Shown piece after piece: positions 2,856-19,112 of a DNA stretch of 64,000 nt. The notes below the pieces were generated by a model. The model worked only from the letters and a program-made list of their open reading frames with translations, had not been told where the DNA came from and did not search any database. Source of the stretch: Anaerolineae bacterium (lineage in GTDB: Bacteria; Chloroflexota; Anaerolineae; Aggregatilineales; Phototrophicaceae); assembly GCA_034420635.1 (NCBI GenBank), contig DAOULD010000136.1, positions 14,372-78,371 on the forward strand, written 5' to 3'. Numbering within the stretch: position 1 is the first letter of the stretch; each line of letters opens with the position of its first letter. Both the position numbers and the translations under genes were made by a program.

Positions 2856-3479
2856 GTGACCTTGGCTTTCGACTTTGAAGAGACGCCGGTACTGGAGACC
2901 GAGCGGCTTCGCTTGCGGCGCATCCAGCCCAGCGACCTGGCTGCCTGGGCGGAGATCTGGCAGTGCGTAAGCGTGAGGCAATACTTGCTTGAATTTGAAG
3001 AGGTCCCCGATGATTCGGCGGTATGGTCCATCATGGAATGGGCGGGCCGCATTTTCAAGCGGAAGACGGGCATTCGCTGGGCGATCACGCTGAAACCGAA
3101 GGATCGTATGATAGGCTCCTGCGGTTTCCATCTGTACGATGCGGGCAACAGGCGGCTGGAGATCGGCTACGAGTTGCATAAGGCTTACTGGCGAAGGGGA
3201 ATCATGACTGAGGCGGTTGCTGAAGTTTTGCGCTTCTGTTTTGATTGCCTGAATGTTCATCGCGTCGAAGCCGATGTAACCGAAGGCAACGTCGCGTCGG
3301 CTGCCTTGCTGCGAAAGCTGGGTTTTGTTTTGGAAGGCCTTTGGCGCGAGCGCGTCTATTCGCGCGGCGCCTATCATGGCATGTGGCAATTTGGCCTGCT
3401 CGAACAGGAATATTATCGGAATATGGAAGATGCGAGATGTGTCCCACTTGTAAAGCGCCCTCATCTGCCACATAGCTGA
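2856..3479 (+). CDS. GNAT family N-acetyltransferase (RimJ/RimL-like)
   Basis: 207-aa ORF with a GTG start. N-terminal ETERLRLRRIQPSDL and the core AYWRRGIMTEAV...VHRVEADVTEGNVASAALLRKLGF are typical of the Acetyltransf_3/RimL type. It ends 33 nt upstream of GT-C paralog 1. Confidence 0.8.
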   Translation: MTLAFDFEETPVLETERLRLRRIQPSDLAAWAEIWQCVSVRQYLLEFEEVPDDSAVWSIMEWAGRIFKRKTGIRWAITLKPKDRMIGSCGFHLYDAGNRRLEIGYELHKAYWRRGIMTEAVAEVLRFCFDCLNVHRVEADVTEGNVASAALLRKLGFVLEGLWRERVYSRGAYHGMWQFGLLEQEYYRNMEDARCVPLVKRPHLPHS

Positions 3480-3512: not shown

Positions 3513-5399
3513 ATGAACTTCCGAAGCCACGCATGTCTATTTTTGATGGTTTTCATCCTTCTCCTGGCGTTTTTTCTTGGCGCGCGCGAACTGAATAGAT
3601 TTCCCGTTTGGGGTGACGAACTCTCCACTTTGACAAACATTGGAGCATTCGACCCGCCATATACGCCGTCGGCTGTTGTGAAATCGCTTCTGCATTATAC
3701 GCCGCTTGAAATGCCAGCATTCTTGGTTGTCAGCGCGTTATGGGCCCAGTTGGCTGGATGGTCGCAGTTTGTATTGCGTCTTCTGTCGCTGTTTGCCGGA
3801 TTGGCGTTTGTCGCCTTCGTTTATCGCTTCGCCGCGGAAAACTTTGGCAAGAACAGCGGCCTGTTTGCCGCGTTACTTCTTAGCACGAATGCGTTCGTTT
3901 TGGTTTTCTTTTCGGAGTTTCGCACTTACACGCTTTTGCTGCTAACTTTCATGGTACACCTATGGCTATATGCCAGGCTCTGGCGATGCCGCAAACCGAC
4001 CACAGCAGGCGTTCTGCTCTTCGCACTGTCTGGTTCGATGATGCTATACACACATCTTGTTTCCGTTGTCATGATTGTTGCTCTTGTCTTCGTCCACATT
4101 ATTTCACAGCCAAAGAACCATCGATGGCGGCAAATCCTTGTTGCGTGGACTATAAGCTTTCTGCTGTTTTTGCCATACGCTCTTGGACTGCTGCGCGAAA
4201 TATCGGAAAAGACAAACGATCCTGGCGCTGCATCAACTCTTGAGCTATTGATCGCCATCGCAGACATCGCGTCAAATGGACTGCTTTGGCTGATGCTCCC
4301 CTTGTTGGGCTCGTTAGTTTACCTAATGCTGCGCAGGCGCAGATGGATAGCGCAGTATATCTTTCTCGTTGCCATTGCTTCATTTCTTGTCCTGCTCTTT
4401 CTCAATATGGTATTCAATGTAATAGTCATAAACAGAATGCGATACTTTCTTCCGGTAATCTCTTTGATGCTCATTCTTTTCTCGGCAGGTCTGGCTTCTA
4501 TAGCAAGGCGGCGCGTCTTTGGCGTTGCTGTTCTGGTGATATCCTGTGTTGCTGGCGTCGGGCTTGCAGGCTCGAACGAAAGCGTCGTGTACGCTGGGTT
4601 AATTGTCAAATCACGAGAATTTCCTCCATTAAACCGATATGTTTATCACCTTCGCGACAAACTGGGCGGCGACGAATTTGTTCTGGGATTCACTAAGCAT
4701 GAAGTGATCAATGAGCCTGAACGCTTCAGTTCCCACAGCTTTGTCGATTACTACCTGCAGGCGCAACTCGGTATTGACGGCGTATTCCTGCACACAAATC
4801 GCAAACGCTATCGGTTGGAGCAAGATGTCCGGTCGATTCTCAGAGCCCATCCTCACGTTCTACTTGCGCACGACCCTTCGAACGTGCCGCTCAACTATGC
4901 TCGAACGCTTGCAATCATTGAAGAAGCTTACCTAGCGTACGCATCGTTGGTGGAGGAGCCGGCGCTGCGAATCCGCAAATATGCGCATCCGGTTATGGGC
5001 TGCGACCGTGAACCGGCATCAATTCAGTACGAAAATGGCGCGCGCTTGTTGGACCGCGCCATTGAATTCGATATTGACGACCAGCGAATAGACGCATTGA
5101 CCTGGTGGAATGTGCCAGACGAAGCCATGCTGGACGAATACAACATTTCCTTACAAATCATCTCATCAGAAGGGAAGAATGTCCGACAAACCGATCGTCA
5201 TCTTTATGACAATATCGTGCCATGGTCTGTGATCGATTTGTCGACAGAAGAGTTGCCTGCCGATGACTATGAGCTTGTCTTGATATTGTACAGACGTGAT
5301 TCGGGGTCGAAAGTTGTCGGAGTGGATCAATCAACTGAGGAGTTTGGCAGTATACTTCCCTTGCTGGGCTTCACCAGGCGCCTGGAAGATGCGGAATGA
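3513..5399 (+). CDS. GT-C fold membrane glycosyltransferase (PMT_2/ArnT-like, GT39/83-like) with C-terminal extracytoplasmic domain; paralog 1 of 8 (subgroup A)
   Basis: 628 aa with about 10-12 hydrophobic segments in the first ~360 aa. Acidic loop-1 motif VWGDELSTL follows TM1. Shared paralog motifs: FSEFRTYTLL, MLYTHLVS, LPYA, RMRYFLP. C-terminal domain motifs: HPHVLLAHDPSNVPLNYARTL, MGCDREPASIQYENG, YNISLQ, DDYELVLILY. Confidence 0.8.
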   Translation: MNFRSHACLFLMVFILLLAFFLGARELNRFPVWGDELSTLTNIGAFDPPYTPSAVVKSLLHYTPLEMPAFLVVSALWAQLAGWSQFVLRLLSLFAGLAFVAFVYRFAAENFGKNSGLFAALLLSTNAFVLVFFSEFRTYTLLLLTFMVHLWLYARLWRCRKPTTAGVLLFALSGSMMLYTHLVSVVMIVALVFVHIISQPKNHRWRQILVAWTISFLLFLPYALGLLREISEKTNDPGAASTLELLIAIADIASNGLLWLMLPLLGSLVYLMLRRRRWIAQYIFLVAIASFLVLLFLNMVFNVIVINRMRYFLPVISLMLILFSAGLASIARRRVFGVAVLVISCVAGVGLAGSNESVVYAGLIVKSREFPPLNRYVYHLRDKLGGDEFVLGFTKHEVINEPERFSSHSFVDYYLQAQLGIDGVFLHTNRKRYRLEQDVRSILRAHPHVLLAHDPSNVPLNYARTLAIIEEAYLAYASLVEEPALRIRKYAHPVMGCDREPASIQYENGARLLDRAIEFDIDDQRIDALTWWNVPDEAMLDEYNISLQIISSEGKNVRQTDRHLYDNIVPWSVIDLSTEELPADDYELVLILYRRDSGSKVVGVDQSTEEFGSILPLLGFTRRLEDAE

Positions 5400-5460
5400 T
5401 GCGCGTTCTCGTGATAGCTTGATATCACACATTGTGAGTTTATTCTGAAACTACAGACAG

Positions 5461-7377
5461 ATGAAACCTGCGGACAAATCTGAAGCCACGATCCAAAGAA
5501 ATCGCCTGGTAGCGATTGCCGCCATGACGTGCATATTGCTGCTGGCATTCGCGCAGGGCGCTCACGGCTTGAATCTGGATCCGATATGGGCGGACGAGTT
5601 GTACTCATTGACAAGCATGGGAGCCTTTGAGTCCCCCTACACTCTTGGTGAAGTAGTGCAATCTTTGCGTCGATACAACCCTGATCACGTTCCGCTCTAC
5701 TTTTATATAGGAGCGCTTTGGGCAAGAATAGCCGGCTGGTCTCAGTTGTCTATGCGACTAATATCGCTGCTTTTCGGCATGCTTACAGCAGCGACGCTAT
5801 ATCGCTTTGGAGCGCAGGTCGTAAGCCAACGAACAGCGCTGGTTGCTGCCTTTTTGACCGTCACAAGCGCTTTTGTGATTTTGTATTTTCATGATCTGCG
5901 CATGTATACAATGCTAATGTGGCTTGGTATCCTTCACACTTGGCTTTACTGGCGAATTGCGCATGGACATCATGTTTCGCGGCTGACTTGGGTATTGTTC
6001 TACGGATCCGCCATTTCCCTGTTTTATACGCACAATTTTTCAACGTTAGTATTTGCTGGGCTAGCCTTCTATCATCTGCTGTTTATAAAGAAGTCACTTT
6101 GCTGGCTTAAGATCGTTGTCGCGTGGTGCATCTGCGCCCTAGTGTTTTTGCCTTATGCGCCTTTTGTGATTGACGGTATTCTGCTGCATCAAGAATTCGA
6201 CCGAAACCCCTTAGATACCTTGGCCGTGATAGATACGTTTGCCTTGCTATTGGCCAATGGTCAGATCATCCTATGGCTGCCCATTCTGTTGACGGTCGGA
6301 TACGCGCTTGCGCGTCGCCAAAGCGGCTCGATTCTGCGGATCCTTGCTGTCGCAAGTTCTATGGTCGTCGTACTTCTTGCCGTACATACGGCATTTCACC
6401 TTATTACTATTACCCGTCTGCGATATCTGCTCGTCCCATGGTTACTTATAAACGTTGTCATTGCATTCGGCATTGCGGAAATCCCGAAACACGCATGGAT
6501 CGCTCATCTGTTGATTCTTGCCTGGCTGATTGCGGGTTACCGATTTACGAGTTCAGGAGATATTCTCAACTACGCCGGGCTGATGTCAAGAACGGAGAAC
6601 TTTCCGCCATTGCACCAATATGAACGTCATTTGAGGGACAGCGTGGCATCAACGGATTTTCTGGTGGGTTTTGACGAATCAGGCGTAGTGAGTCAGGTGC
6701 ATCGTGAGTATTACAGCGCAAACAGCATCAGTGATTACTACTTGCAGACAATGCTTGGGATAGACGGCACATTTCTCCATCCAAGCAAGAAACGCTATCG
6801 CCTTGAGCGAGATGTACGCGAAATTCTACAATCACATCCTCACGTTCTACTTGCGCACGACCCTTCGAACGTGCCGCTCAACTATGCTCGAACGCTTGCG
6901 ATCATTGAAGAAGCTTACGTACCGTGTACATCGTTGGTGGAGGAGCCGGCGTTGCGGATTCGCAAATACACGCATCCTGTCATGGGCTGCGACCGTGAAC
7001 CGGCATCAATTCAGTACGAAAATGGCGCGCGCTTGTTGGATCGCGCCATTGAATTCGATATTGACGACCAGCGAATAGACGCATTGACCTGGTGGGATAT
7101 CCCGGACGACGAAATGCTGAACCAATACAATATTTCCTTGCAAATAATCACCTCGGATTGGCAAAACATTCGGCAAGTTGATCGCCATCTTCATGATGAT
7201 TTGGTCCCTTGGGGTGTCAGCGAGCTGTCGACTGCAGACCTGCCCTCTGGGGACTATCGGCTGATGTTGATAGTATACGATAGATTTACCGGTGTAAAAT
7301 TGGGCGGCATCGACTTGATAAGCAGTCAGTCTGGGGAAATCTTACCACTGTTAAGTTTCGAAATAGACTCACAGTGA
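5461..7377 (+). CDS. GT-C fold membrane glycosyltransferase with C-terminal domain; paralog 2 of 8 (subgroup A)
   Basis: 638 aa. Motifs: IWADELYSL, NPDHVPLYFYI (HPPLY-like), FHDLRMYTML, WLYWRIAHG, LFYTHNFS, RLRYLL. The C-terminal domain is near-identical to paralog 1 over 6835-7095 and to paralog 4 over 7084-7212. Confidence 0.8.
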   Translation: MKPADKSEATIQRNRLVAIAAMTCILLLAFAQGAHGLNLDPIWADELYSLTSMGAFESPYTLGEVVQSLRRYNPDHVPLYFYIGALWARIAGWSQLSMRLISLLFGMLTAATLYRFGAQVVSQRTALVAAFLTVTSAFVILYFHDLRMYTMLMWLGILHTWLYWRIAHGHHVSRLTWVLFYGSAISLFYTHNFSTLVFAGLAFYHLLFIKKSLCWLKIVVAWCICALVFLPYAPFVIDGILLHQEFDRNPLDTLAVIDTFALLLANGQIILWLPILLTVGYALARRQSGSILRILAVASSMVVVLLAVHTAFHLITITRLRYLLVPWLLINVVIAFGIAEIPKHAWIAHLLILAWLIAGYRFTSSGDILNYAGLMSRTENFPPLHQYERHLRDSVASTDFLVGFDESGVVSQVHREYYSANSISDYYLQTMLGIDGTFLHPSKKRYRLERDVREILQSHPHVLLAHDPSNVPLNYARTLAIIEEAYVPCTSLVEEPALRIRKYTHPVMGCDREPASIQYENGARLLDRAIEFDIDDQRIDALTWWDIPDDEMLNQYNISLQIITSDWQNIRQVDRHLHDDLVPWGVSELSTADLPSGDYRLMLIVYDRFTGVKLGGIDLISSQSGEILPLLSFEIDSQ

Positions 7378-9296
7378 AGCAAAACTCAACAGACGATACT
7401 TCTGAATTCAAAGGCGCTGCCGGCGACGTATCGACGCTAGCAAGCATAGTCGTCGTATTGCTGCTTGCTTTTGCCTTGGGCGCCTATGGTCTTGATCGAG
7501 ATTCGCTTATCGGGGATGAACTCAACTCGCTGTCAATCATGGGCGCTTTCGATCAGGCGCATTCGCCGGCCGATGTCGTGGCGCTCTTAAAACAATACGC
7601 TCCGGATCACCAACCGCTTTATTTCGTTCTTGGCTGGGCCTGGGCCCAGTTGACCGGCCTGTCGCAATTTACCATGCGGCTGCATGCCTTGCTGATTGGC
7701 ATGTTGATGTTTGCCTGGCACTATCGCCTGGCAACGGACCTGGCAGGCCGGCGCGTCGCGGTTTTGGCCGCGTTGCTCGTGAGCGCAAACGCCTTGGTCA
7801 TCACAAATCTTCACCACATTCGAATGTACAGTTTGGTCATGCTGTTTGCAGTCATACACTTTTGGCTCTATTGGCGGCTGGTTCACGGGCCTGGCAAGGG
7901 ACGTTTAACATGGAGTCTTTTTGTCGCGTCATGTACCGCCTTTATGTATACCCACAATTATTCTCTTGTATTCTTCGCCGCGCTGGGCATTTATCATTTG
8001 CTCTTCATTGCGCGATCAAGTCAATGGCTTCGGGTAATGGCGGCTTGGGCGCTGGGTTTCGCACTGTTTCTTCCCGGTCTTTGGCTTACTCTGGCTGGGA
8101 TATCTTTCCAATTCGAATACGCAAGGAATCATCCGCTGCTTACACACGAGCTGATTGCGGCTCTGGCGCTGGACTTCAGCAATCATCTTGCCGCGCTTTG
8201 GCTCCCGATGGTTGTTGCCCTCGGTTTGTCGCTATACCGCTGCAGAACGGGGGTCGTTGCGAGGTTGGCGTTTATTGGTCTTGCTATGTTTGTCATTATG
8301 GCTTCAATAAACGCTGTGACGCAAAGCATAGATTGGACAAGAACGCGCTACTTCCTGATGATGTGGCCCCTGTTCGTGATCAGTTTTTCCGCCGCTCTCT
8401 ATTCCTTGCCGCTGAAACGCGTATTATTACCCTTATTCATTTTGCTTTGGGCTGTTTCTGGATATCGAGTCGCGTACACCGATGTTGTCTTCCAATACGC
8501 GTTCGTTTTCTATCCGAACAAAGCGTATCCACCGCTTCACAGATACGTGCAGCACTTGAGGGGAAAGGTCCGCGCAGACGATTATGTGCTCGGCTTTAGA
8601 ACATCGGACGAGATATTTGCGCGTTGGTCCACTGTTGGAGGAACCTTTATCGATTTTTATCTTGGCAACCGATTGGGTATCGACGGCGCTTTCTTGCACG
8701 CCAGCCTCAAACGCTACCGGCTTTCGGAAGACACGCGCGACATTCTCTCGGCTCATCCCCATTTATTGCTGGCTCACGATCCGAGCAATGTCCCGCTCAA
8801 CTACGCGAAAACACTGGAAGTCGTTCAGGAAGTTCTCATGCCATGTGACAAGTTGGCAGATGAACCTGCGTTGTCAATCCGCAGATACGCGCATCCCGTT
8901 ATGGGCTGCGACCATGAACCCGCATCAATTCATTACGAAAACGGCGCGCGCTTGTTGGATCGCGCAGCGCGCTACGATGCAGCCGGGCAGCGAATAGCGG
9001 CATTGACCTGGTGGGAAATCCCGGATGACGAAATGCTGGACTTGTACAATGTTTCACTGCAAATTATCACCCCGGATTGGCAGAATCTGCGCCAAGTCGA
9101 TCGTCACCTTTATCGTCGAATGGTCCCTTGGAGCGTCATTGAGCTGTCTACTGCGGGGCTGCCCGAGGGCGAGTACCGGCTGATGTTGATTCTGTACAGT
9201 CGCGAAACGGGCGAGAGAGTTGGCGCTACAGATTTGTCGAGTGGCGAGTCAGGGTTTATGCTGCCGCTGCTATCTTTCAACATACGCGCTAAATGA
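7374..9296 (+). CDS. GT-C fold membrane glycosyltransferase with C-terminal domain; paralog 3 of 8 (subgroup A)
   Basis: 640 aa. The GTG start overlaps the paralog-2 stop (GTGA). Motifs: LIGDELNSL, APDHQPLYFVL, LHHIRMYSLV, WLYWRLVHG, FMYTHNYS, HPHLLLAHDPSNVPLNYAKTL, MGCDHEPASIHYENG, YNVSLQ, GEYRLMLILY. Confidence 0.8.
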   Translation: MKQNSTDDTSEFKGAAGDVSTLASIVVVLLLAFALGAYGLDRDSLIGDELNSLSIMGAFDQAHSPADVVALLKQYAPDHQPLYFVLGWAWAQLTGLSQFTMRLHALLIGMLMFAWHYRLATDLAGRRVAVLAALLVSANALVITNLHHIRMYSLVMLFAVIHFWLYWRLVHGPGKGRLTWSLFVASCTAFMYTHNYSLVFFAALGIYHLLFIARSSQWLRVMAAWALGFALFLPGLWLTLAGISFQFEYARNHPLLTHELIAALALDFSNHLAALWLPMVVALGLSLYRCRTGVVARLAFIGLAMFVIMASINAVTQSIDWTRTRYFLMMWPLFVISFSAALYSLPLKRVLLPLFILLWAVSGYRVAYTDVVFQYAFVFYPNKAYPPLHRYVQHLRGKVRADDYVLGFRTSDEIFARWSTVGGTFIDFYLGNRLGIDGAFLHASLKRYRLSEDTRDILSAHPHLLLAHDPSNVPLNYAKTLEVVQEVLMPCDKLADEPALSIRRYAHPVMGCDHEPASIHYENGARLLDRAARYDAAGQRIAALTWWEIPDDEMLDLYNVSLQIITPDWQNLRQVDRHLYRRMVPWSVIELSTAGLPEGEYRLMLILYSRETGERVGATDLSSGESGFMLPLLSFNIRAK

Positions 9297-11212
9297 AAGC
9301 AATGCGCGCCGATACTGCAAACGCCAGGAACAGGGATCTCAGCCATTTGTCCCTGCTCGCTCTAACGGTTGTTATATTGCTTTTCTCTTTTGCTGTTGGC
9401 GCGCGCGGGTTGAACGCGGACCTGGTGTGGAATGATGAATTGGCGTCGCTCACCAACTTCGGCGCCTTCAATAGGACACTGACCCTGCAAGGCGTGATCG
9501 AATTAATGCAGCAGTATAGTCCTGCGGATGTACCTGTTTTCCCCTGGATCGGCTACATATGGGCGCGACTAGCTGGATGGTCGCAATTTGCCCTGCGGTC
9601 GCTGTCTCTTTTTGCCGGTGTATTAATGATCGCCCAATTGAATAGCTTTGCGTCCAGAGTTTTCGATCGGCGGGTAGCCGTCGTTGCCTCGTATCTTATC
9701 GGGAGCAGTTCTTTCGTATTGCTTTACTTTCACGAGCTGCGAACCTATACGATTTTCATGCTCTTTGTCACTATCTATTTGACAGCCTATTGGGAGCTTG
9801 CTTTCGCTGCTCGCGCGACGTTTTTTCCCAGGCTGCTTATTCCAATATGTACGGTTGTCCTTCTCTATACGACAATTATTTCGTTAGTCTTTTTCGCGAC
9901 GCTTGCGATAATTCATGTCTTGTTCGCTCCAAAAAGGCGGCAGTGGATAGAGATCGTGTTGAGTTGGGTGCTTGGCGCGATGTTCATGCTTCCGTTCGCA
10001 GCATCGCACGCGCAAGGGGTGGGGCTGGTTACAAATGATGGGTTGGCCGCTTCCGCTCCCGAAGTTCTTTGTGCCTTCTTGCGTCTTGCCGTCAACGGCC
10101 TGGACTTTTTGTGGGCTCCGCTTATAGCTGTTGTGTGCTACGCGCTGTGGAAGACAGCCAATCGCGACCTGCTGCGATTAATCGCGTTTGCGGCGATCAC
10201 GGTCGCGCTCCTGCTGTTGGCGAACGACCAGTTCGCGCTAATTGCTGTAACGCGGATTCGTTATTTCCTGCTCGCCTGGATCCTACTTGTCGTCATTTTC
10301 GCATGCGGCTTGGTCTCATTGCCCCGTTGGAAGTTGCCTACGGTCGTTCTACTGGCGATATGGTTCGTGGCGGGCAGCCAGTTCGGACAATCTGCAGACT
10401 TCTCAACATATTATGCTGGCGCGAAAGCATCCGCGCCGGATGCGCCCCCGCTATCGCAAATTGTAACCCGCCTTCGAGGAAGGGCAGGACCTCAAGACTT
10501 CTTGCTTGGGTTTTATGAATCTTACGATCCGAACTATGTTTGGCAGGTCCACAGCGCCGGAAGCGTCGCCGACTACTACTTGAATACTCAACTGGGCATT
10601 GACGGCGTGTTTCTTCATGCGAATCGCAAACGCTATCGGCTGGAGGAAGACGTCCGGTCGATTCTCAGATCCCATCCTCACGTTCTGCTTGCCCACGACC
10701 CATTGAAAGTCCCGCTGAACTATGCCAGAACGCTTGCGATCATTGAAGAAGATTACCTAGCGTGCGCATCGTTGGTGGAGGAGCCGGCGCTGCGAATCCG
10801 CAAATATGCGCATCCCGTTATGGGCTGCAATCACCAACCCGCTCCCATTGATTACGACAATGACATACGATTAATTGACCGCGCCGCGCGTTACGATACC
10901 GACGCAGAGGTTGTTCAAGCGTTGACCTGGTGGGATGTCCCGGACGGCGAAATGCTGAACCAATACAATATTTCCTTGCAAATCATCACCTCGGATTGGC
11001 AAAACATTCGACAAATTGATCGCCATCTTTATGACGGATTGGTCCCTTGGAGTGTCATTGAACTGTCCACGGCAGATCTCCCCCTCGACGACTACCGGAT
11101 CATGTTGATCTTGTACAATCGAGAGAACGGGTCCAAAGTCCCAGGCGTCGATGAACTCAGCGGCGAATCGGCCGGTATTCTTCCGATTGCGTCTTTTTCC
11201 ATCGACACCTAG
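9293..11212 (+). CDS. GT-C fold membrane glycosyltransferase with C-terminal domain; paralog 4 of 8 (subgroup A)
   Basis: 639 aa. The ATG start overlaps the paralog-3 stop (ATGA). Motifs: VWNDELASL, SPADVPVFPWI, FHELRTYTIF, LLYTTIIS, HPHVLLAHDPLKVPLNYARTL, MGCNHQPAPIDYDND, YNISLQ, DDYRIMLILY. Confidence 0.8.
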   Translation: MKAMRADTANARNRDLSHLSLLALTVVILLFSFAVGARGLNADLVWNDELASLTNFGAFNRTLTLQGVIELMQQYSPADVPVFPWIGYIWARLAGWSQFALRSLSLFAGVLMIAQLNSFASRVFDRRVAVVASYLIGSSSFVLLYFHELRTYTIFMLFVTIYLTAYWELAFAARATFFPRLLIPICTVVLLYTTIISLVFFATLAIIHVLFAPKRRQWIEIVLSWVLGAMFMLPFAASHAQGVGLVTNDGLAASAPEVLCAFLRLAVNGLDFLWAPLIAVVCYALWKTANRDLLRLIAFAAITVALLLLANDQFALIAVTRIRYFLLAWILLVVIFACGLVSLPRWKLPTVVLLAIWFVAGSQFGQSADFSTYYAGAKASAPDAPPLSQIVTRLRGRAGPQDFLLGFYESYDPNYVWQVHSAGSVADYYLNTQLGIDGVFLHANRKRYRLEEDVRSILRSHPHVLLAHDPLKVPLNYARTLAIIEEDYLACASLVEEPALRIRKYAHPVMGCNHQPAPIDYDNDIRLIDRAARYDTDAEVVQALTWWDVPDGEMLNQYNISLQIITSDWQNIRQIDRHLYDGLVPWSVIELSTADLPLDDYRIMLILYNRENGSKVPGVDELSGESAGILPIASFSIDT

Positions 11213-11260: not shown

Positions 11261-13198
11261 ATGGATATGAAGCGCAAAGCCATCGCATCGCGTTCGACGA
11301 ACGCCACAGAAAACGCCCTCATCAGTTGCGGCAGCCTTGCAACTATGGTCGCTGTTTTTTTGCTAGTGTTTGCCATCAGCGTGAGCGGAGCGAATGGCTA
11401 TATCTTCCGCACCGACGAACTGTTTTCTGTCTCCAATATGGGCGGGTTTGATCCGCTTTACGGTCCTGCCGAGATTATTCACTCGATTTCGCAATTCAGC
11501 CCGGATCATGCCCCGCTGTTTTTCTTACTTGGCGCCGGCTGGGCGAGTGTCGCGGGCTGGACACAGTTCGCCTTGCGCATGTTTGCTGTTTTGACGGCGA
11601 TTGTGATGATCGCCTGTTTGTACCGTTATGCGACCGATGCTTTCGATTACCGAACCGGCCTGCTTTCATCGATCTTGATGGGCGCGTCCGCATACTTGGT
11701 TCTGCACTTTCACGACTTTCGCATGTATCCACTGCTGCTTTTGCTTGCGATCGTTCACAGTTGGCTCTATTGGCGGCTGGAGAGCGGACGGGCGGCCAAT
11801 CGGCGGCACTGGACCCTATTTGTTTTCTCGGCGATATCGCTGCTTTATACGCATACGTTTTCGGTCATACTATTTGCCGGACTGGCGGCTTTTCACCTGA
11901 TTCTTGCGCGCAAATCAAATCACTTTATGAAGATTTGGGCGGGATGGGCGATAGCCGCGATTGCTTATTTGCCATACTTTCCGACAACTCTGGCTGCGCT
12001 GGAACAAGCGGCTCAAATCGAAAAAGTGACGGCGGCCGCCGCGAGTATCGGAGAACTGATTGGGACTTTCTCGCATCTGTTGACGAATGGCGCTGACTGG
12101 CTTCTGGTTCCCTTTGGCGCAGCAGTCGTATATGGCGTACTTCGCCTTCGCGACCGCGCCTCTTCGAGGCTGCTGTTTCTTGCGCTTGGGATGCTCATCG
12201 TCCCGCTCGCGCTTAACGAGTTGGTGGGTTTGATTCCGCTCTCGAGGATGCGCTATTTCCTGATACTTTGGTTTCCCTTCCTGTTGCTTTTTGCCCGCGG
12301 GATCACGCTAGCGCCGCGCTGGGCATGGCTGGCGCCGATTCTTGTGATTGCCTGGTCGGTTGCCGCGTATCAATACTATCATTCTGAGGATGTGCTACTC
12401 TACATAGGGGGCATGTCCAAGACGCGCAACTATCCCGCTCTGGACGACTATGTGAGACAGTTGCGCAACAAAGTTCGGTCGGAAGACTTCCTGCTCGGTT
12501 TCGCCCGCAATTACTACCTCAATCACGATCACAAACACGGCAAGAGCGTGTCCGACTATTATACGCAGTTACAATTGGGCATCGACGGCGCATTCGTTCG
12601 CAGCCGGGCGGTCGGTCCTTGGCTCGTCGAGGAGATGGACGAATTGATTGACGGGCATCCGTATCTGTTATTCGCCTATGAGCCGCAGAACGCGCCTGAC
12701 GGACTTGAAGGCGCCATACACGTGATGCACAGCAGGTATAAAGCCTGCGACGTCTTGGTTGATTCCAGTACGCTCTATGTGCAAAGATTCGTCGATCCCT
12801 TGCTGCATTGCGATCGAGCTTCTCTGCGTATCGAATACGAAAATGGTATTGCAATTGCCGATCGCTATGTTGAGTTCCAGCCGGATGCCGCTCTTTTGAC
12901 GTTACTGATCGGCTGGGATGTACCCAACCAGCGTTTGTTGAATGCTTTCAGTTTCTCGCTCCAGGTTCATACGCCACAAGGGGAAAAGGTCGCGGAGGGA
13001 CATAGCGACTTTTATCTGCATCAGTTTTCGCGAAAGTGGAACACGCTTAAACTGCCTATCGCCGGCATCGCTCCTGGTGAGTATCGTCTGGTTGTCATTC
13101 TGTATAATACCGAGAGCGGGAAGAAAGTCGGGGGAGTCGATATTTCCACAGGCGAGACGGGCACGATTCTTCCGATTCTTTCCTTTACTGTAGAATAG
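11261..13198 (+). CDS. GT-C fold membrane glycosyltransferase with C-terminal domain; paralog 5 of 8 (subgroup B)
   Basis: 645 aa. Motifs: IFRTDELFSV, SPDHAPLFFLL, FHDFRMYPLL, WLYWRLESG, LLYTHTFS, RMRYFLILW, HPYLLFAYEPQNAP, LHCDRASLRIEYENG, GEYRLVVILY. Confidence 0.8.
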   Translation: MDMKRKAIASRSTNATENALISCGSLATMVAVFLLVFAISVSGANGYIFRTDELFSVSNMGGFDPLYGPAEIIHSISQFSPDHAPLFFLLGAGWASVAGWTQFALRMFAVLTAIVMIACLYRYATDAFDYRTGLLSSILMGASAYLVLHFHDFRMYPLLLLLAIVHSWLYWRLESGRAANRRHWTLFVFSAISLLYTHTFSVILFAGLAAFHLILARKSNHFMKIWAGWAIAAIAYLPYFPTTLAALEQAAQIEKVTAAAASIGELIGTFSHLLTNGADWLLVPFGAAVVYGVLRLRDRASSRLLFLALGMLIVPLALNELVGLIPLSRMRYFLILWFPFLLLFARGITLAPRWAWLAPILVIAWSVAAYQYYHSEDVLLYIGGMSKTRNYPALDDYVRQLRNKVRSEDFLLGFARNYYLNHDHKHGKSVSDYYTQLQLGIDGAFVRSRAVGPWLVEEMDELIDGHPYLLFAYEPQNAPDGLEGAIHVMHSRYKACDVLVDSSTLYVQRFVDPLLHCDRASLRIEYENGIAIADRYVEFQPDAALLTLLIGWDVPNQRLLNAFSFSLQVHTPQGEKVAEGHSDFYLHQFSRKWNTLKLPIAGIAPGEYRLVVILYNTESGKKVGGVDISTGETGTILPILSFTVE

Positions 13199-13236: not shown

Positions 13237-15192
13237 TTGGCAACTTTTCCCGACTGGGGAGACTTCGTCTTGCAGTTCCGCAGCATCTTCTCCGACAAAC
13301 ATGATACTATCGGCAAGGACGCGTCATCTTTGCTGATGGTCTTCGTTCTCCTCTGCGTTTTTGTGTTTGGCGCCAATGGCTTGAATACCGACTCCATCTG
13401 GACCGATGAGCTATACGCCATTACCAACATGGGTGGATTCGACGGACCTTATTCGCCGGCGGAAGTTGTCAATTCAGTAGCCGAGAACTTCCCCGATCAC
13501 GTGCCGCTCTTCTTCTTGCTTGGCGCCGGCTGGGCAAACTTCGTGGGATGGACGCAATTCGCCCTGCGCTTGTTGCCGGTATTCGCGGGCGTACTCATGA
13601 TTGCCTGGACGTATCGCCTGGCGAGCGACATGTTTGATCGTTTTGCTGGCTTGGCTGCCGCAAGTCTCTTGGCTACCTCGGCCTACATGGTCCTGTATAT
13701 CCATGACTTCCGTATGTATTCACTGTTTCTCACGCTCGCTATTGTACATTTGTGGCTTTATTGGAAACTGATGGAGCGCAAATCAATAGATGGCCGTCCG
13801 ACATTTGTGGCTTTCGTGTTGTCGGCGGTTGCGCTGATTTACACGCACTTCTTCTCGATCATCTTTTTCACAGGGCTTGGCGCATATCATCTCCTAATCT
13901 TGCGGAAGTCTCGCCGTTGGTGGCAAACGTTGCTAGGCTGGGCGATTGCCGCAACGCTCTTCTTGCCCTATCTGCCGGTCTTGATTGCTGGCGTTCAGCG
14001 CGCTGCGGACAAGCCAAATGTCACTAGCAGAGCGGCTTCGGCTCCCGAATTGCTTTCCACGTTTCTCTGGCTGCTGACAAACGGGGCGCCCTGGCTGCTG
14101 GTTCTCCTGACTCTGCTTGTGGCTATCGGCTTTCGTCGCCGGCGCGATCATAAGGCTGCAAAATTCACGCTGATCCCGCTGACGATGGTGATCTTGATCA
14201 TCGTCGCCAATGAGTGGATTGGTCTCATCCCCTTGACCAGGATGCGATATTTCTTGATTGTCTGGATTCCGATGTTCCTCATCATAGCTTATGGCTTGAG
14301 TGCTTTGCCGAGCCGGCGCGCCGTGACAACGCTCATCATGCTGATGTGGTGTCTGTCTGGCTTTCAGTTTTATCGGTCAGAAGAGATCATGAACCATGTA
14401 GGCAGTATGGTGTTTACCAGGCTCTATCCGCCACTGCCTGATTATGTCTGGCATTTGACGGGAAAACTGCGCTCGGAGGATTATCTGCTGGGATTCTCCA
14501 AGAGCAGCCATGTGAACAAAGTCCTGACACTGGGGAAGAGTGTGGCGGATTATTACACGCAGGAGCAACTGGGTATCAATGGCGCCTTTATCCGTCGTGG
14601 CGCCTATGGAGAATGGCTGGAAGGTGAGATCAGGCAATGGATGGGAAATCAGCCCTATCTATTATTCGCGTTTGATCCTCAAGATTTGCCAAACAGTTAT
14701 CAGCGAGTGCGCGAAGTCATCGAAAGCAAGTATTTGCAATGCGAAGTCGTGGTGGAAGAACCGCAACTTTTTGTCCAGCGCTATGTCAATTTACGTCTGG
14801 GCTGTGACCGCGAATACCGGCCGATAGCCTATGAAAATGGCGTGACGCTGGTCGACCGTTTCGCCCAATATGCTCCGGAAGAGCAGAAAGTCTACATCCT
14901 TACCGGTTGGGAAGTGGAGAACGAAGAGGCGCTATATGAGTATAATTTGTCCTTGCAATTCATCACGCCGGATTGGCAACGACTGGGAGCGCAAATCGAC
15001 CGCCATCTTTATGATAATATTCTCCCGTGGTTTACGGCCGAATTGTCTACCGAGGATCTGCCGCCCGGCGATTATCGCCTGATGGTCATCCTCTACGATC
15101 GCGAATCGCGGAAGAAAGTGGGGGGAGTCGTCCTGGCCAGCGGGTGGGAAGACAGTATCTTCCCGATAGTCTCGTTTACCGTAGAAGCCTGA
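13237..15192 (+). CDS. GT-C fold membrane glycosyltransferase with C-terminal domain; paralog 6 of 8 (subgroup B)
   Basis: 651 aa; the longest ORF starts at TTG, so the true start is uncertain. Motifs: IWTDELYAI, FPDHVPLFFLL, IHDFRMYSLF, WLYWKLMER, LIYTHFFS, RMRYFLIVW, QPYLLFAFDPQDLP, LGCDREYRPIAYENG, YNLSLQ, GDYRLMVILY. Confidence 0.8.
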   Translation: MATFPDWGDFVLQFRSIFSDKHDTIGKDASSLLMVFVLLCVFVFGANGLNTDSIWTDELYAITNMGGFDGPYSPAEVVNSVAENFPDHVPLFFLLGAGWANFVGWTQFALRLLPVFAGVLMIAWTYRLASDMFDRFAGLAAASLLATSAYMVLYIHDFRMYSLFLTLAIVHLWLYWKLMERKSIDGRPTFVAFVLSAVALIYTHFFSIIFFTGLGAYHLLILRKSRRWWQTLLGWAIAATLFLPYLPVLIAGVQRAADKPNVTSRAASAPELLSTFLWLLTNGAPWLLVLLTLLVAIGFRRRRDHKAAKFTLIPLTMVILIIVANEWIGLIPLTRMRYFLIVWIPMFLIIAYGLSALPSRRAVTTLIMLMWCLSGFQFYRSEEIMNHVGSMVFTRLYPPLPDYVWHLTGKLRSEDYLLGFSKSSHVNKVLTLGKSVADYYTQEQLGINGAFIRRGAYGEWLEGEIRQWMGNQPYLLFAFDPQDLPNSYQRVREVIESKYLQCEVVVEEPQLFVQRYVNLRLGCDREYRPIAYENGVTLVDRFAQYAPEEQKVYILTGWEVENEEALYEYNLSLQFITPDWQRLGAQIDRHLYDNILPWFTAELSTEDLPPGDYRLMVILYDRESRKKVGGVVLASGWEDSIFPIVSFTVEA

Positions 15193-15245: not shown

Positions 15246-17195
15246 ATGCGCGCTGCACAATCCAGTAGCTCAAAGCAAAAGCGAAATACGGAACAGGACG
15301 CAAACGGTTGGGAGATCGGCCGCGGAAGCGCGCTGGCCTTGCTGACTATCATAATGTTGATGGCTTTTGCTTTCGGCGCCAATGGACTGAATACCGAACC
15401 GATTTGGGCGGATGAATTGTATTCTCTGACCAATATGGGTGTTTTCGATCCACCCTATAGCCCACAACAGATCATCAATTCGATTACAACCTATAGTTCG
15501 GATCATGTACCGCTGTATTACCTGCTGGGATCGGTATGGGCGCAATTAGTCGGATGGTCCCAGGTTTCCATGCGCATGTTTTCGGTGCTGTCCGGGGTGC
15601 TTATGATTGCATGGCTTTATCGCCTGTCAACGGAAGTATTCTGCCAGCGGACAGGTTTGATTGCGGCGCTGCTCATGACCACATCGGCTTACGTAATTGT
15701 CTTCTTCCACGATATCCGCATGTATACGATGCTGTTATTGCTGTTCGCCATGCAGGCCTGGTTCTATTGGCGAATTGCTCACACACAGCAAGTGTCCCGC
15801 CTGTACTGGGTCGCATTCTTCTTATCTGCCTTGGCTCTACTTTATACACATGTATTCTCGCTGCTGGTTTTCACACTGCTCGGCTTATACCACCTGTTAT
15901 TTGCGCCACGGTCGGCGCGCTGGCTTCGTTTGCTGACTGTTTGGGGACTAACCGGGCTGCTGTTTTTGCCGTATTTACCAACATTGTTTACCGCCATTGC
16001 TTTGGCCGCGGAAAACGTAAAGGTGACGACTGCCGCGGCGTCTATCCCGGAATTGATCTACAATTTTGCTTTCCTGCTCTTCAATGGTCAGGATTTGTTG
16101 ATCCCGCTGTTTGCAGGGATTGTGATTTACTCCTTATGGCGCACCCGTTCCAGCGTCGCCTGGAAATTCGCGCTGGTGTCGCTGGCGGTATTGCTGCTGA
16201 TCACTTTGCTCAACGAGCTTGTGGGCATCATCCCGGTAAAGCGCATGCGATATTTCCTCATCTTGTGGATCCCCTTCGTCATGATCTGCGCCTTTGGCCT
16301 TACATCAATGCCGCGTTGGCGCCGCGCCACTTTTTTGTTCGCGCTGATTTGGATATCTGCGGGTTACCAATTCTATCGCTCACAACAACTGTTAGACTAT
16401 ATTGGCGGTATGCAGAAGGCGCGTCTTCACCCGCCAATACACGAATACGCGGACGCGCTGCTTGGCAAGGTTCGGTCGGAAGACTTCCTGCTGGGGTTTT
16501 CCTTCGTTGATTATGTGAACAATGTCTACAAGTTTGGCGATAACGTGATTGACTATTATACCGGCGCGCAGTTGGGTATCGACGGCGCTTTTATTCCCTG
16601 GCGCTGGAGTGGGGAACGTTTGATGATCGATCTCGTTCGCAAGATCGATCGACATCCCTATATCTTGCTCGCCTACCATCCAAATGACCTCAAAAAGAAT
16701 CACGAAGACGTGTACGAGTACATCGCGGCCCGCTACGATAGTTGCGAGGCGATCATTGATAGAGAAGACCTGTTTGTTCAGCGTTTCGTGAATCCCCTAG
16801 CGGGTTGCCAGCACGAATACCTGCCCATTCATTTCGAAAACGGAATCATCATCGTCGACCGATTCGGCGAGTACGATGCGACGAAGGACCTGTTTCGGAT
16901 CGTCACCGGTTGGGAAGTCGCGTCCGATCAGCAGCTTGACCAATACAATATCTCGATACAGTTGCTGGATTCTGAATGGGAGAAATACTGGCAAGGCGAT
17001 TGGCATCTCTACAATCGCATCTTGAAATGGCACGAATTGGAATTCCAGCCGACTCGCCAACTCACTCCAGGCGTTTACCGCCTCGTGGTTATCCTATACG
17101 ATCGCGAAACTGGCGAGAGAGTCGCGGGCGTAGACTTAAGCAGTGGCGAAACCGGCCAGCTTCTGCCGCTCTTGACCATCTCTGTCGAAGCCTAG
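15246..17195 (+). CDS. GT-C fold membrane glycosyltransferase with C-terminal domain; paralog 7 of 8 (subgroup B)
   Basis: 649 aa. Motifs: IWADELYSL, SSDHVPLYYLL, FHDIRMYTML, WFYWRIAHT, LLYTHVFS, RMRYFLILW, HPYILLAYHPNDL, AGCQHEYLPIHFENG, YNISIQ, GVYRLVVILY. Confidence 0.8.
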   Translation: MRAAQSSSSKQKRNTEQDANGWEIGRGSALALLTIIMLMAFAFGANGLNTEPIWADELYSLTNMGVFDPPYSPQQIINSITTYSSDHVPLYYLLGSVWAQLVGWSQVSMRMFSVLSGVLMIAWLYRLSTEVFCQRTGLIAALLMTTSAYVIVFFHDIRMYTMLLLLFAMQAWFYWRIAHTQQVSRLYWVAFFLSALALLYTHVFSLLVFTLLGLYHLLFAPRSARWLRLLTVWGLTGLLFLPYLPTLFTAIALAAENVKVTTAAASIPELIYNFAFLLFNGQDLLIPLFAGIVIYSLWRTRSSVAWKFALVSLAVLLLITLLNELVGIIPVKRMRYFLILWIPFVMICAFGLTSMPRWRRATFLFALIWISAGYQFYRSQQLLDYIGGMQKARLHPPIHEYADALLGKVRSEDFLLGFSFVDYVNNVYKFGDNVIDYYTGAQLGIDGAFIPWRWSGERLMIDLVRKIDRHPYILLAYHPNDLKKNHEDVYEYIAARYDSCEAIIDREDLFVQRFVNPLAGCQHEYLPIHFENGIIIVDRFGEYDATKDLFRIVTGWEVASDQQLDQYNISIQLLDSEWEKYWQGDWHLYNRILKWHELEFQPTRQLTPGVYRLVVILYDRETGERVAGVDLSSGETGQLLPLLTISVEA

Positions 17196-17201
17196 ACGCT
17201 C

Positions 17202-19112
17202 ATGCTAGATCCAGCCCCAGGCAAACGTCACCTATTCCAGGCTTTTCCTCGCTGGTGGCGGATGCTGCCGATATTACTGCTGGTAACGCTGCTGGCGGCG
17301 GGTGGGATTAACGCCGATGTCATCTGGTACGATGAACTGACTTCAATCGGCCATGCTGGCGGCTTGACGGGACCCTTTTCGCCGCTGGACGTGCTTCACT
17401 CGATCAGCACGCACAGCCCCAAACATGGTCCCTTGTTCTTTGAATTGCTGGCGGGTTGGGGCGCGCTTGTGGGGTGGCATCATGTTGTCTTGCGCTGCTT
17501 GCCACTCTTCTTTGGCGTTCTGACGGTCGCCTGGGTATACCGTATTGGGCAGGATTTTCTGGGTTGGCGCGCGGGACTATGGGCCAGCGCTTTCCTGGGG
17601 CTGAACGTCTTCTGGTTGGAGTACTTTCACGAAATCCGAATGTACACCGCGCAAGCGGCTATGCTCGTAGCGATGCTTTGGCATTACTTGCACATCGTGC
17701 AATCAAAGTCGACTATTGGCAAAGTACGTTGGTTCGGGCTGATCCTCACGGCATCGTTGTCACTATATGCCCAGCCTTTTTCACTCTTTGTTTTCCTGGC
17801 TGTCGGCTTCTATCACCTGGTATTCGTTCCCAAAACGAAGCGCTGGATTCATACTGCTCTGGCGTTTTTGCTTGTCGGCGTACTATACCTGCCTTGGCTT
17901 CCAGTAACTTACGTAGGGTTGACAACAAAGTTTGACGCTTGGGGAGAAATGCCCTTTGAGCAGGCGGTGGACGTCTTTCTCCAACTGCTGTCTAACGGAA
18001 ACTGGTTGGTGATTCTGATCGCGCTTGCTGCGGCTGCCTTGCACCTGCGGAAGCGCGAGAACTTGAAAAAAGCCTTGCCGTTTTGGGTGCTTGCCTTTGT
18101 CATCCTGGCGCTTCTATTGTCGGTGAATGAAGCTGTTAGACTTATTCCTTTACGCCGGTCTCGCTATTTCTTTGTCGTCTTTTACCCCGCCGCGCTAATC
18201 GTTGGCAGTGGCTTGGCATGGATACGACCGCGTCCGCTACCGATAATCCTCCTGGCGCTGTATATCGGTTCGGGGTTTGTCTTGCGCGGCAGGGACGATT
18301 ATGTCAATTATCAAGGTACGATTCGCGCCATCCAGAGTTATCCTCCCATTTACGACTACGTTCTGGCATTGCGGGATCTTGTCTCCGAAGAAGACTTCGT
18401 GGTCGGATTCTCCAACATCAATTTCATCATACGTCGAGGCAAAGTTGGCAAGAGCACGGCGGATTATTATTTTGAAACGCTGATGGGCATCGATGGAACC
18501 TTTATTCGAACGAACCTTGATAACGCTCAACTTGAGGAGGATATACCAGACAAGCTGGAAGACCATCCCTATCTTCTCTTTACCTACAATCCCTTGGACA
18601 AACCGGCGATCTTCGACCGAACCAGGTCAATCATCGAGAGAGATTATGCGCCTTGCGAACTTGTTTTAGACGAAGCGGAACTCCGCGTAGAGCGCTATGT
18701 CTACCGTACTCTGGACTGTGACCGCAAATATCAGCCGATTCGCTACGACAATGGCATCTCCATCGTTGACAAATTCGCTGATTTCATTCCCGATCGCGAT
18801 GTCCTGCGCGTCGTGACCGGATGGGAAGTGGCCGACAAAGCGCTTCTGGACCAATACAATATATCGATTCAGATCCATTCGCTGGACGGGCAAAAGGTCG
18901 CTCAAATCAACCCGGATCGTCACCTTTACCATGATGTCCTGAAGTGGTTCGTTGTGGAGTTGTCCACGTCAGATCTGTCGCCTGGCGACTATAGGGTTGT
19001 AGTCCTGGTCTATGACCGATATCCTCCGCACGCGAAGGTCTTCGGCAGCGACATCGAATCCGGCGAGTACGGGAAGATATTGCCCATACAGTCCTTCAGC
19101 ATTCCGGGATAG
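17202..19112 (+). CDS. GT-C fold membrane glycosyltransferase with C-terminal domain; paralog 8 of 8 (subgroup B, most divergent)
   Basis: 636 aa, starting 6 nt after the paralog-7 stop. Motifs: IWYDELTSI, SPKHGPLFFEL, FHEIRMYTAQ, SLYAQPFS, RSRYFFVVF, HPYLLFTYNPLDKP, LDCDRKYQPIRYDNG, YNISIQ, GDYRVVVLVY. Confidence 0.8.
   Translation: MLDPAPGKRHLFQAFPRWWRMLPILLLVTLLAAGGINADVIWYDELTSIGHAGGLTGPFSPLDVLHSISTHSPKHGPLFFELLAGWGALVGWHHVVLRCLPLFFGVLTVAWVYRIGQDFLGWRAGLWASAFLGLNVFWLEYFHEIRMYTAQAAMLVAMLWHYLHIVQSKSTIGKVRWFGLILTASLSLYAQPFSLFVFLAVGFYHLVFVPKTKRWIHTALAFLLVGVLYLPWLPVTYVGLTTKFDAWGEMPFEQAVDVFLQLLSNGNWLVILIALAAAALHLRKRENLKKALPFWVLAFVILALLLSVNEAVRLIPLRRSRYFFVVFYPAALIVGSGLAWIRPRPLPIILLALYIGSGFVLRGRDDYVNYQGTIRAIQSYPPIYDYVLALRDLVSEEDFVVGFSNINFIIRRGKVGKSTADYYFETLMGIDGTFIRTNLDNAQLEEDIPDKLEDHPYLLFTYNPLDKPAIFDRTRSIIERDYAPCELVLDEAELRVERYVYRTLDCDRKYQPIRYDNGISIVDKFADFIPDRDVLRVVTGWEVADKALLDQYNISIQIHSLDGQKVAQINPDRHLYHDVLKWFVVELSTSDLSPGDYRVVVLVYDRYPPHAKVFGSDIESGEYGKILPIQSFSIPG

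Follow-up and report, generated by a model that had tools for sequence, protein, structure and literature searches.

Several bacterial systems in which related genes exchange segments are well described. Interlocus gene conversion and concerted evolution are known from the tufA/tufB pair, from ribosomal RNA (rRNA) operons and from mycobacterial PE/PPE genes; cassette-based antigenic variation is known from pilE/pilS of Neisseria, vlsE of Borrelia and msp2 of Anaplasma; and O-antigen and capsule clusters are hypervariable surface-polysaccharide loci shaped by between-strain recombination. Here, we studied a 64,000-nucleotide (nt) stretch of an Anaerolineae bacterium (positions 14,372 to 78,371 of contig DAOULD010000136.1, assembly GCA_034420635.1; hereafter the window), which holds an array of eight tandem genes, g1 to g8, for GT-C-fold membrane glycosyltransferases. 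The second gene, g2 (5461-7377), had been proposed in an earlier note to be a chimera of its paralogs. All four front genes (g1 to g4) are patchworks that require at least half a dozen exchange tracts; the mosaic is real and arose by homologous recombination among the four front paralogs, for which the statistical evidence is overwhelming. Interlocus gene conversion is textbook, and an array with a hypervariable front half appears to be undescribed; a limited literature search found nothing on this array or its samples.

The locus resembles tuf, rRNA and PE/PPE conversion in its short, sharp-edged, near-identical tracts between otherwise divergent paralogs, in the involvement of synonymous sites, in the incongruence of segment trees and in the need for pre-existing identical runs. 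Unlike in those systems, only one sub-region is affected, in four of the eight tandem genes, the outcome is a set of multi-directional patchworks in which whole genes are not homogenised, and most related genomes are unconverted, which points to episodic shuffling and not to sustained concerted evolution. With pilE/pilS, vlsE and msp2 the locus shares segmental, non-reciprocal-looking transfer between tandem relatives, alteration of a surface-exposed domain, and possible variation between near-identical populations (the window and the locus L017, described below). However, there is no split here into an expressed gene and silent, truncated cassettes, transfer runs several ways, no specialised cis element was identified, and the products are enzymes, not antigens. 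A programmed cassette system is not supported, given eight full-length genes and transfers from g2 to g1, g2 to g4, g4 to g1 and g4 to g2.

Among glycosyltransferases, the mycobacterial EmbC-EmbA-EmbB and AftD as well as ArnT resemble the array in having a GT-C fold, an acidic motif after the first helix, tandem paralogs and a soluble C-terminal domain with a beta-sandwich, although there are eight copies here and three in EmbC-EmbA-EmbB; we know of no description of mosaic conversion tracts at the EmbC-EmbA-EmbB, AftD or ArnT loci. As in O-antigen and capsule loci, conserved flanks and a conserved core lie beside glycosyltransferase genes that are 40-55% divergent among genomes that are close elsewhere, and copy number varies from six to eight. 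In contrast to those loci, the variable genes here are paralogs of one family held in a fixed tandem frame, and exchange junctions fall inside conserved-domain coding sequence, where O-antigen and capsule loci swap whole unrelated genes.

Near-identical tracts among the front paralogs

The eight paralogs lie in tandem on the same (plus) strand between 3513 and 19112, each a full-length open reading frame (ORF) with its own start codon, encoding 628-651 amino acids (aa):

3513-5399, plus strand: g1 (paralog 1), ORF of 628 aa, Pfam PMT_2, mosaic
5461-7377, plus strand: g2 (paralog 2), ORF of 638 aa, Pfam PMT_2
7374-9296, plus strand: g3 (paralog 3), ORF of 640 aa
9293-11212, plus strand: g4 (paralog 4), ORF of 639 aa, mosaic
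11261-13198, plus strand: g5, ORF
13237-15192, plus strand: g6, ORF
15246-17195, plus strand: g7, ORF
17202-19112, plus strand: g8, ORF, Pfam PMT_2

Over whole genes, pairwise identity among the eight is 0.44-0.56 for nucleotides and 0.29-0.48 for proteins. Against this background the following tracts stand out, the last two of which are additional to those in the earlier note:

6835-7095, plus strand: tract A in g2, 14/261 mismatches against g1 4848-5108, ungapped
4848-5108, plus strand: partner of tract A in g1
7084-7212, plus strand: tract B in g2, 9/129 mismatches against g4 10922-11050, ungapped
10922-11050, plus strand: partner of tract B in g4
4797-5003 (g1) against 10622-10828 (g4), plus strand: g1-g4 tract, 17/207 mismatches
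6961-7046 (g2) against 8880-8965 (g3), plus strand: g2-g3 tract, 8/86 mismatches

Recounting reproduced the approximate mismatch numbers that the earlier note had given for tracts A and B, and two of its three identical runs in tract A (65 and 54 nt); the middle run is 59 nt, not 57. Its estimate of roughly two-thirds identity just upstream of tract A agrees with 34 mismatches in the 100 nt of 6735-6834 against 4748-4847, and paralog 1 is, as it stated, the more divergent partner over tract B (34/129 mismatches to g2, against 9/129 for paralog 4). The patch in g3 at 8880-8965 is near-identical to g1 as well as to g2.

Even against a generous 75% background, the binomial probability of tract A is 3e-17 and that of tract B 1e-7. 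Sliding-window identity along the codon alignment, which the earlier note had put forward as a check, is not uniform among the eight genes and is high only in tracts, at 0.87-0.96 with 0.3-0.6 elsewhere. By pair, it reaches 0.82-0.93 for g1-g4 over columns ~1351-1570, 0.88-0.96 for g1-g2 over columns ~1396-1700 and 0.82-0.95 for g2-g4 over columns ~1666-1800, and g3 rises to 0.75-0.83 against g1 and g2. With g2 as the child and g1 and g4 as the parents, the informative sites are g1-like at 51 of 53 positions in 6849-7083 and g4-like at 31 of 34 in 7096-7218.

A second proposed check, a GENECONV-style test in which polymorphic columns were permuted 1000 times, gave fragment scores of 178 (g1-g2; g2 6837-7149), 128 (g1-g4), 104 (g2-g4), 57 (g2-g3) and 48 (g1-g3), with a permutation maximum of 28. 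With third codon positions alone, the first four of these fragments still beat all 1000 permutations, and the g1-g3 fragment has P = 0.007. A whole-gene 3SEQ-style test yielded only P ~2e-3 to 1e-2, because ~500 informative sites of the N-terminal part are saturated and contribute noise.

Synonymous sites carry the same signal. The synonymous difference (pS, Nei-Gojobori) is saturated outside the tracts in every pair (0.72-0.86) and falls to 0.00-0.20 inside them. For g1-g2 it is 0.15 in tract A, compared with 0.79 in the N-terminal part, and within that tract 0.08 over 6991-7047 and 0/7 over 7048-7083; for g2-g4 in tract B it is 0.14. Identity at synonymous sites inside the tracts and saturation outside them thus indicate recombination and not selection on the protein. 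Selection, chance and misassembly are excluded as explanations of the mosaic. The earlier note had proposed recent, patchy recombination that shuffles the C-terminal domain, and this is borne out by synonymous sites, permutation, trees and a second assembly (L016, below). Its extension to array members in general holds for g1-g4 and fails for g5-g8, among which neither the sliding window nor the permutation test found conversion tracts (identity 0.45-0.6 over the same alignment columns).

Ancestry of the patches and position of the junctions

Related arrays are available from other genomes, and with them each donor, recipient and junction can be assigned, which makes this a cleanly resolved example in uncultured Chloroflexota (Anaerolineae; Phototrophicaceae/Aggregatilineales-like metagenome-assembled genomes, MAGs). 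The comparator loci are:

L001: ENA scaffold of a sister strain, flanks 97% identical to the window; seven paralogs, no g3
L002: flanks ~89% identical; six paralogs, no g1 and no g3
L003-L015: thirteen species-representative genomes (Chloroflexota/Anaerolineae/Phototrophicaceae/Aggregatilineales MAGs, several chromosome-level); six to eight paralogs
L016: separate sample, 98.8% identical over 21.2 kb; all eight genes
L017: same array; 13 differences over 19,296 nt
L018: partial Logan contig, with 100% identity throughout 7116-10794

The back half of the array is stable across these genomes. In L001-L013 the products of g5-g8 are 73-99% identical to their orthologs, except for the g6 slot of L011 (59%), and L011 lacks a counterpart of g7; the values fall to 51-67% in L014 and L015, the most distant loci. 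The front genes are hypervariable: in most genomes they share only 45-59% protein identity with those of the window, and front-slot proteins are 40-55% divergent between genomes whose g5-g8 are 80-94% identical. The gene g3 occurs only in the window's lineage. The genes g5-g8 are therefore stable orthologs across genomes, and the front slots have been replaced, duplicated and patch-converted.

In segment neighbour-joining trees with seven related genomes, the C-terminal regions of the relatives fall into three clades, one each for the g1, g2 and g4 slots, so that there is no general concerted evolution and the g1, g2 and g4 types are well defined. The window's genes hop between these clades from segment to segment. 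We assigned the ancestry of each segment from site painting against the three front genes of L001, from the segment trees and from exact identities (L001_1, L001_2 and L001_3 are the g1, g2 and g4 of that strain):

g2 5461-6834: g2-type, 98.2% to L001_2
g2 6835-6990: g2-type, 93.6% to L001 g2, 67% to L001 g1 and g4
g2 6985-6993, plus strand: ancestry junction from g2-type to g4-type (painting, trees, identities)
g2 6991-7083: g4-type, 95.7% to L001_3, 58.1% to L001 g2
g2 7084-7212: g4-type, 90.7% to L001 g4, 93.0% to the resident g4
g2 7084-7095, plus strand: shared motif TTGACCTGGTGG, encoding LTWW of the conserved ALTWW, in all four front paralogs
g2 7241-7374 (last ~135 nt): below 60% to every gene compared
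g1 3513-4780 (N-terminal 1.2 kb): at most 48% to anything found
g1 4857-4945: g2-type, 89.9% to L001_2
g1 4965-5097: g4-type, 94.7% to L001_3, 100% over 5013-5072
g1 5113-5396: g1-type, 89.4% to L001_1
g3 7374-8690 (N-terminal 1.2 kb): unique, at most 50% to every gene examined
g3 8700-9120 (C-terminal part): g4-type, 82-87%; 86.5% to L001_3 over 8700-8965
g4, N-terminal part: divergent g4 allele, 72.9% to L001 g4
g4 10620-10660: g1-like
g4 10680-10790: g2-type
g4 10829-10917: g2-type, 92.1% to L005_2, 88.8% to L009, 84.3% to L001_2, 58.4% to L001_3
g4 10922-11209: g4-type, 96.9% to L001_3

The earlier note had described g2 as a piece of paralog 1 followed by a piece of paralog 4, with the switch inside 7084-7095. 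This arrangement has to be revised on both counts: 6835-6990 is still g2-type, with g1 and g4 the recipients there, and the junction in g2 lies at ~6985-6993, beyond which 6991 to ~7240 is a single contiguous g4-type tract. The g1/g2 identity in tract A is therefore composite, derived from g2 as far as ~6950-6990 and from g4 after that. The change of partner at 7084-7095 reflects the junctions of the other two genes, since g1 returns to g1-type at ~5097-5113 and g4 to g4-type at ~10917-10922. Pairwise comparison alone thus puts a chimera junction in the wrong place. The donor g2 is unchanged in 6835-6990, as its 93.6% identity to the ortholog indicates, which fits non-reciprocity.

The g1 and g4 junctions coincide at the ALTWW-coding motif, the core of which, CCTGGTGG, occurs at 5101, 7088, 9007 and 10926. 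This core also matches seven of eight bases of the Escherichia coli Chi sequence GCTGGTGG, a consensus that comes from E. coli and may not be that of the host phylum. Because CCTGGTGG encodes the conserved LTWW, the match is probably a coincidence.

For some patches the nearest sequence is an allele from another lineage and not a resident gene. The 92% identity of g4 10829-10917 to the g2 of L005 suggests that between-strain exchange has contributed alongside exchange within the genome. A reciprocal swap between g2 6991-7083 and g4 10829-10917 was considered and set aside, as the g4 patch shares 84% identity with the resident-type g2 and 92% with that of another lineage. Recent unequal crossover, which a blastn alignment joining the C-terminus of g3 to that of L001 g2 had raised, was likewise rejected as the origin of g3, whose N-terminal 1.2 kb is so unlike every gene examined.

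Gene conversion and competing explanations

The reading that we favor, with a probability of roughly 85%, is interlocus gene conversion among g1-g4, in several directions, of patches of 50-300 nt of DNA encoding the C-terminal domain. Under this reading, g2-type sequence would have been copied into g1 (4857-4945) and g4 (10680-10790), g4-type sequence into g1 (4965-5097) and g2 (6991 to ~7240), and g4 itself would have been overwritten by g2-type sequence at 10829-10917. RecA-type strand invasion between misaligned paralogs, seeded at the longest identical runs, may have started each event, with heteroduplex repair then leaving short patches; each conversion would extend the identity available to the next, making the process self-reinforcing. 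These steps are drawn from bacterial recombination in general. The membrane catalytic part of the genes, at ~47% nucleotide identity, would be too divergent to recombine.

Why this region is affected can be seen in the relatives. Among fourteen related genomes (L001-L010 and L012-L015), 24 of the 50 paralog-paralog identical runs of at least 17 nt lie at gene nt 1350-1800, the longest being 39 and 35 nt. Identical runs are thus concentrated in the C-terminal stretch, where homologous pairing can start. The remaining genome, chromosome-level L011 (OZ243936.1), has two front paralogs that share, at the homologous C-terminal position (7497-7736 and 9483-9722), a tract of ~240 nt with 93-100% identity and an identical run of 124 nt, although the rest of these genes is ~45% identical. 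This conversion arose independently, and the site is a hotspot of recurrent exchange. In 13 other genomes the front genes code for this domain too, and a scan of the codon alignment with a 120-nt window showed no such tracts in them; a self-blastn search at a threshold of at least 80% merged alignments and missed tracts.

Several points weigh against gene conversion in this form. Since g2 6991-7083 is g4-type while g4 10829-10917 is g2-type, strict non-reciprocity is not demonstrable. The directions of transfer assume that L001 is a proxy for the ancestral state. The closer match of the g2-type patch in g4 to L005_2 (92%) than to L001_2 (84%) means that some patches perhaps came from other strains. 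The tract state in the chromosome of one cell is read from assemblies, not from reads. Finally, two otherwise identical assemblies, the window and L017, disagree at exactly 13 g1/g2 sites within 6900-6981, which shows instability at this place, in the population or else in the assemblers.

The strongest competitor is import: a single recombination with the array of a divergent relative would have replaced ~6991-10372, that is, the 3' end of g2, all of g3 and the N-terminal part of g4, and the resemblance of g2 to g4 in tract B would have been inherited from the donor array and not copied from the resident g4. The window does differ from L001 in one continuous block, between flanks and g5-g8 that are ~97% identical. 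Past ~6990, g2 drops from 98% to 52-77% identity to L001; the block contains the extra gene g3 with its unique N-terminus, and the N-terminal 1 kb of g4 is only 73% identical to L001 g4. The tail of g3 is only ~69% like that of g2, the last 135 nt of g2 match nothing found, and the divergence of front slots beside conserved g5-g8 (40-55% divergence against 80-94% identity, as above) indicates that allele replacement is common. However, g2 6991-7083 shares 95.7% identity with the g4 of the sister strain and 98.9% with the resident g1, whereas the rest of the block is only ~70% identical to L001. Import also leaves the near-identities of g1 with g2 and g4 unexplained, as g1 lies outside the block, and the tail of g1 and the N-terminal part of g2 are 89-98% identical to L001. 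As an account of the whole mosaic, import is therefore unlikely, though to be taken seriously; block import has probably contributed to the locus, and it is compatible with gene conversion.

Because the source is a metagenome-assembled contig, we also considered whether an assembler had collapsed or mis-threaded paralogs at shared k-mers, or whether polishing reads had cross-mapped. Identical runs of 54-65 nt are close to common k-mer sizes. Nevertheless, the mosaic recurs in L016, which comes from another sample and carries its own scattered single-nucleotide polymorphisms (SNPs; 17/261 and 12/129 mismatches in the two tracts), and the partial Logan contig L018 agrees with the window where they overlap (7116-10794). 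The mosaic is thus a property of the genome and not an artefact of this contig. Moreover, k-mer mis-joins give hybrid genes or deletions and not internal patches with gene order kept, and chromosome-level L011 shows the same phenomenon independently. As an explanation of the mosaic, artefact is very improbable.

Artefact remains a live option for the L017 variant only. The sole difference between the window and L017 over 19,296 nt is the following cluster:

6900-6981, plus strand: cluster of 13 sites, all but one of the 14 at which g1 and g2 differ in tract A: 6900, 6919, 6922, 6926-6928, 6952, 6957, 6960, 6969, 6970, 6978 and 6981

L017 carries the g1 base at every one of these sites, which leaves its g2 with 1/261 mismatches to g1 and a 206-nt identical run, and which would turn the conserved g2 Cys489 into Tyr, as in g1. 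One reading is a further g1-to-g2 conversion (82-206 nt) that segregates in the population. The other is that an assembler collapsed the graph bulge that lies between the two shared runs of 65 and 59 nt, since a de Bruijn bulge would collapse in exactly this way. Because the window bases at these sites match the g2 orthologs of other genomes and L016, the window state is best regarded as the older or correct one; the window version is also the less homogenised of the two, which argues against artefact in the window itself. The strain comparison that the earlier note had suggested thus gives the same mosaic in L016 and a g1-like patch in the g2 of L017. That metagenome assemblies of the same organism disagree within a tract calls for caution in annotation and in strain-level SNP analysis.

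The weakest alternative, conservation without recombination through strong purifying selection or through a functional element embedded in the nucleotide sequence, could appeal to the stretch being the most conserved part of the protein (C510, W545, S559 and Q561 invariant, C489 nearly so) and to the 60-75% identity of front paralogs here even in unconverted genomes, but it is negligible given tract pS of 0.00-0.20 beside saturation elsewhere, an identity partner that changes along the gene, the tract-free copies of the domain in g5-g8 and in the front genes of 13 other genomes, and an Rfam scan of the whole window that returned zero family matches. There are no transfer RNAs either.

Divergence between the window and L016 is uneven: ~0.1-0.2% across g2-g3 (4 and 3 differences) and 1.0-1.6% in g4 and g1, with 48 differences within 1 kb of g5 (12001-13000). 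This pattern points to recent recombination between strains or to a local sweep. The differences look like scattered point changes, and no conversion signature was found among them.

The encoded enzymes and the surroundings of the array

The array genes encode GT-C-fold membrane glycosyltransferases of the Pfam PMT_2 / ArnT-like type with an extracytoplasmic C-terminal domain. Matches to PF13231 (PMT_2) score 32.3 bits for g2, 44.9 for g1 and 27.0 for g8 (gathering cutoff 26.1); an NCBIfam profile search of the array proteins and a sequence search of the PDB gave no match. Database homologs, from Chloroflexi/Chloroflexota MAGs, carry the name glycosyltransferase family 39 protein. An AlphaFold model of g2 built from 46 family sequences (predicted local distance difference test, pLDDT, 90.7; predicted template modelling score, pTM, 0.85) has membrane helices to ~residue 391, an alpha/beta subdomain at ~395-505 and a beta-sandwich at ~517-635. 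A Foldseek comparison of this model with the PDB placed ArnT on top (5ezm E = 2.7e-8; 5ezm and 5f15 both ~3e-8), with further matches to ALG12, STT3/PglB, AftD (6w98), AftA (8if8), Pmt4 and EmbB (7bwr), and with weak matches of the beta-sandwich to chains of the WzmWzt O-antigen ATP-binding cassette (ABC) transporter; sequence identity to any solved structure is only 9-15%. D45 and E46 (g2 numbering, as for all residues here), which follow the first helix, do not vary among the 46 family members or the eight paralogs, and they correspond to the acidic motif of the first extracytoplasmic loop, which is catalytic in PMT/ArnT enzymes.

Tract A encodes g2 residues 459-545 and tract B residues 542-584. 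On the model, the exchanged DNA is predicted to encode the last part of the alpha/beta subdomain together with the front half of the beta-sandwich, both lying outside the membrane. Conversion would thus reshuffle 5-20 residues in extramembrane subdomains that probably touch the acceptor glycan. The residues C510, W545, S559 and Q561 in this stretch are likewise invariant in the family. Cys489 is kept in at least 90% of the family, and g1 is the sole paralog of the eight without it, having Tyr at the aligned codon (~4938-4940); the likely disulfide partner, invariant C510, is still present in g1. The g1 enzyme may be functionally relaxed.

The comparison exposes a conserved GT-C array of six to eight genes in which the back four are stable and the front genes change. 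If it is true that these enzymes build a cell-surface glycan, such exchange would offer a plausible route to surface variation. A further step, which we regard as doubtful, would be that the front half is a module in which recombination diversifies a surface glycan, at a rate above point mutation. The conserved C-terminal tract would then act as a recombination handle that re-assorts catalytic N-terminal cassettes and C-terminal subdomains within and between strains, a role that is no less speculative. The module is hinted at by the 13-site L017 patch, by copy numbers that range from six to eight, by the divergence of front slots (40-55%) beside back slots that are 80-94% identical, and by conversion at the same spot in the distant relative L011.

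Two related arrays contain interrupted genes. The g6 ortholog of L001 is split in two ORFs (527 and 221 aa, 15858-17826) by an apparent frameshift, and in L008 the gene at the head of the array is cut short at 534 aa (4066-5670); these reflect either occasional pseudogenisation or assembly errors.

The genes that flank the array in the window are:

762-2783: iron-sulfur (Fe-S)/CCG oxidoreductase gene, upstream of the array
2856-3479: small ORF, upstream of the array; its counterpart at syntenic loci is called an acetyltransferase
19814-21211, minus strand: dihydrolipoyl dehydrogenase gene, downstream of the array

Within the array, g1 and g2 are separated by a spacer of 61 nt. Overlaps of 4 nt of the start/stop type join g2 to g3 (7374-7377, GTGA) and g3 to g4 (9293-9296, ATGA), and they suggest translational coupling.

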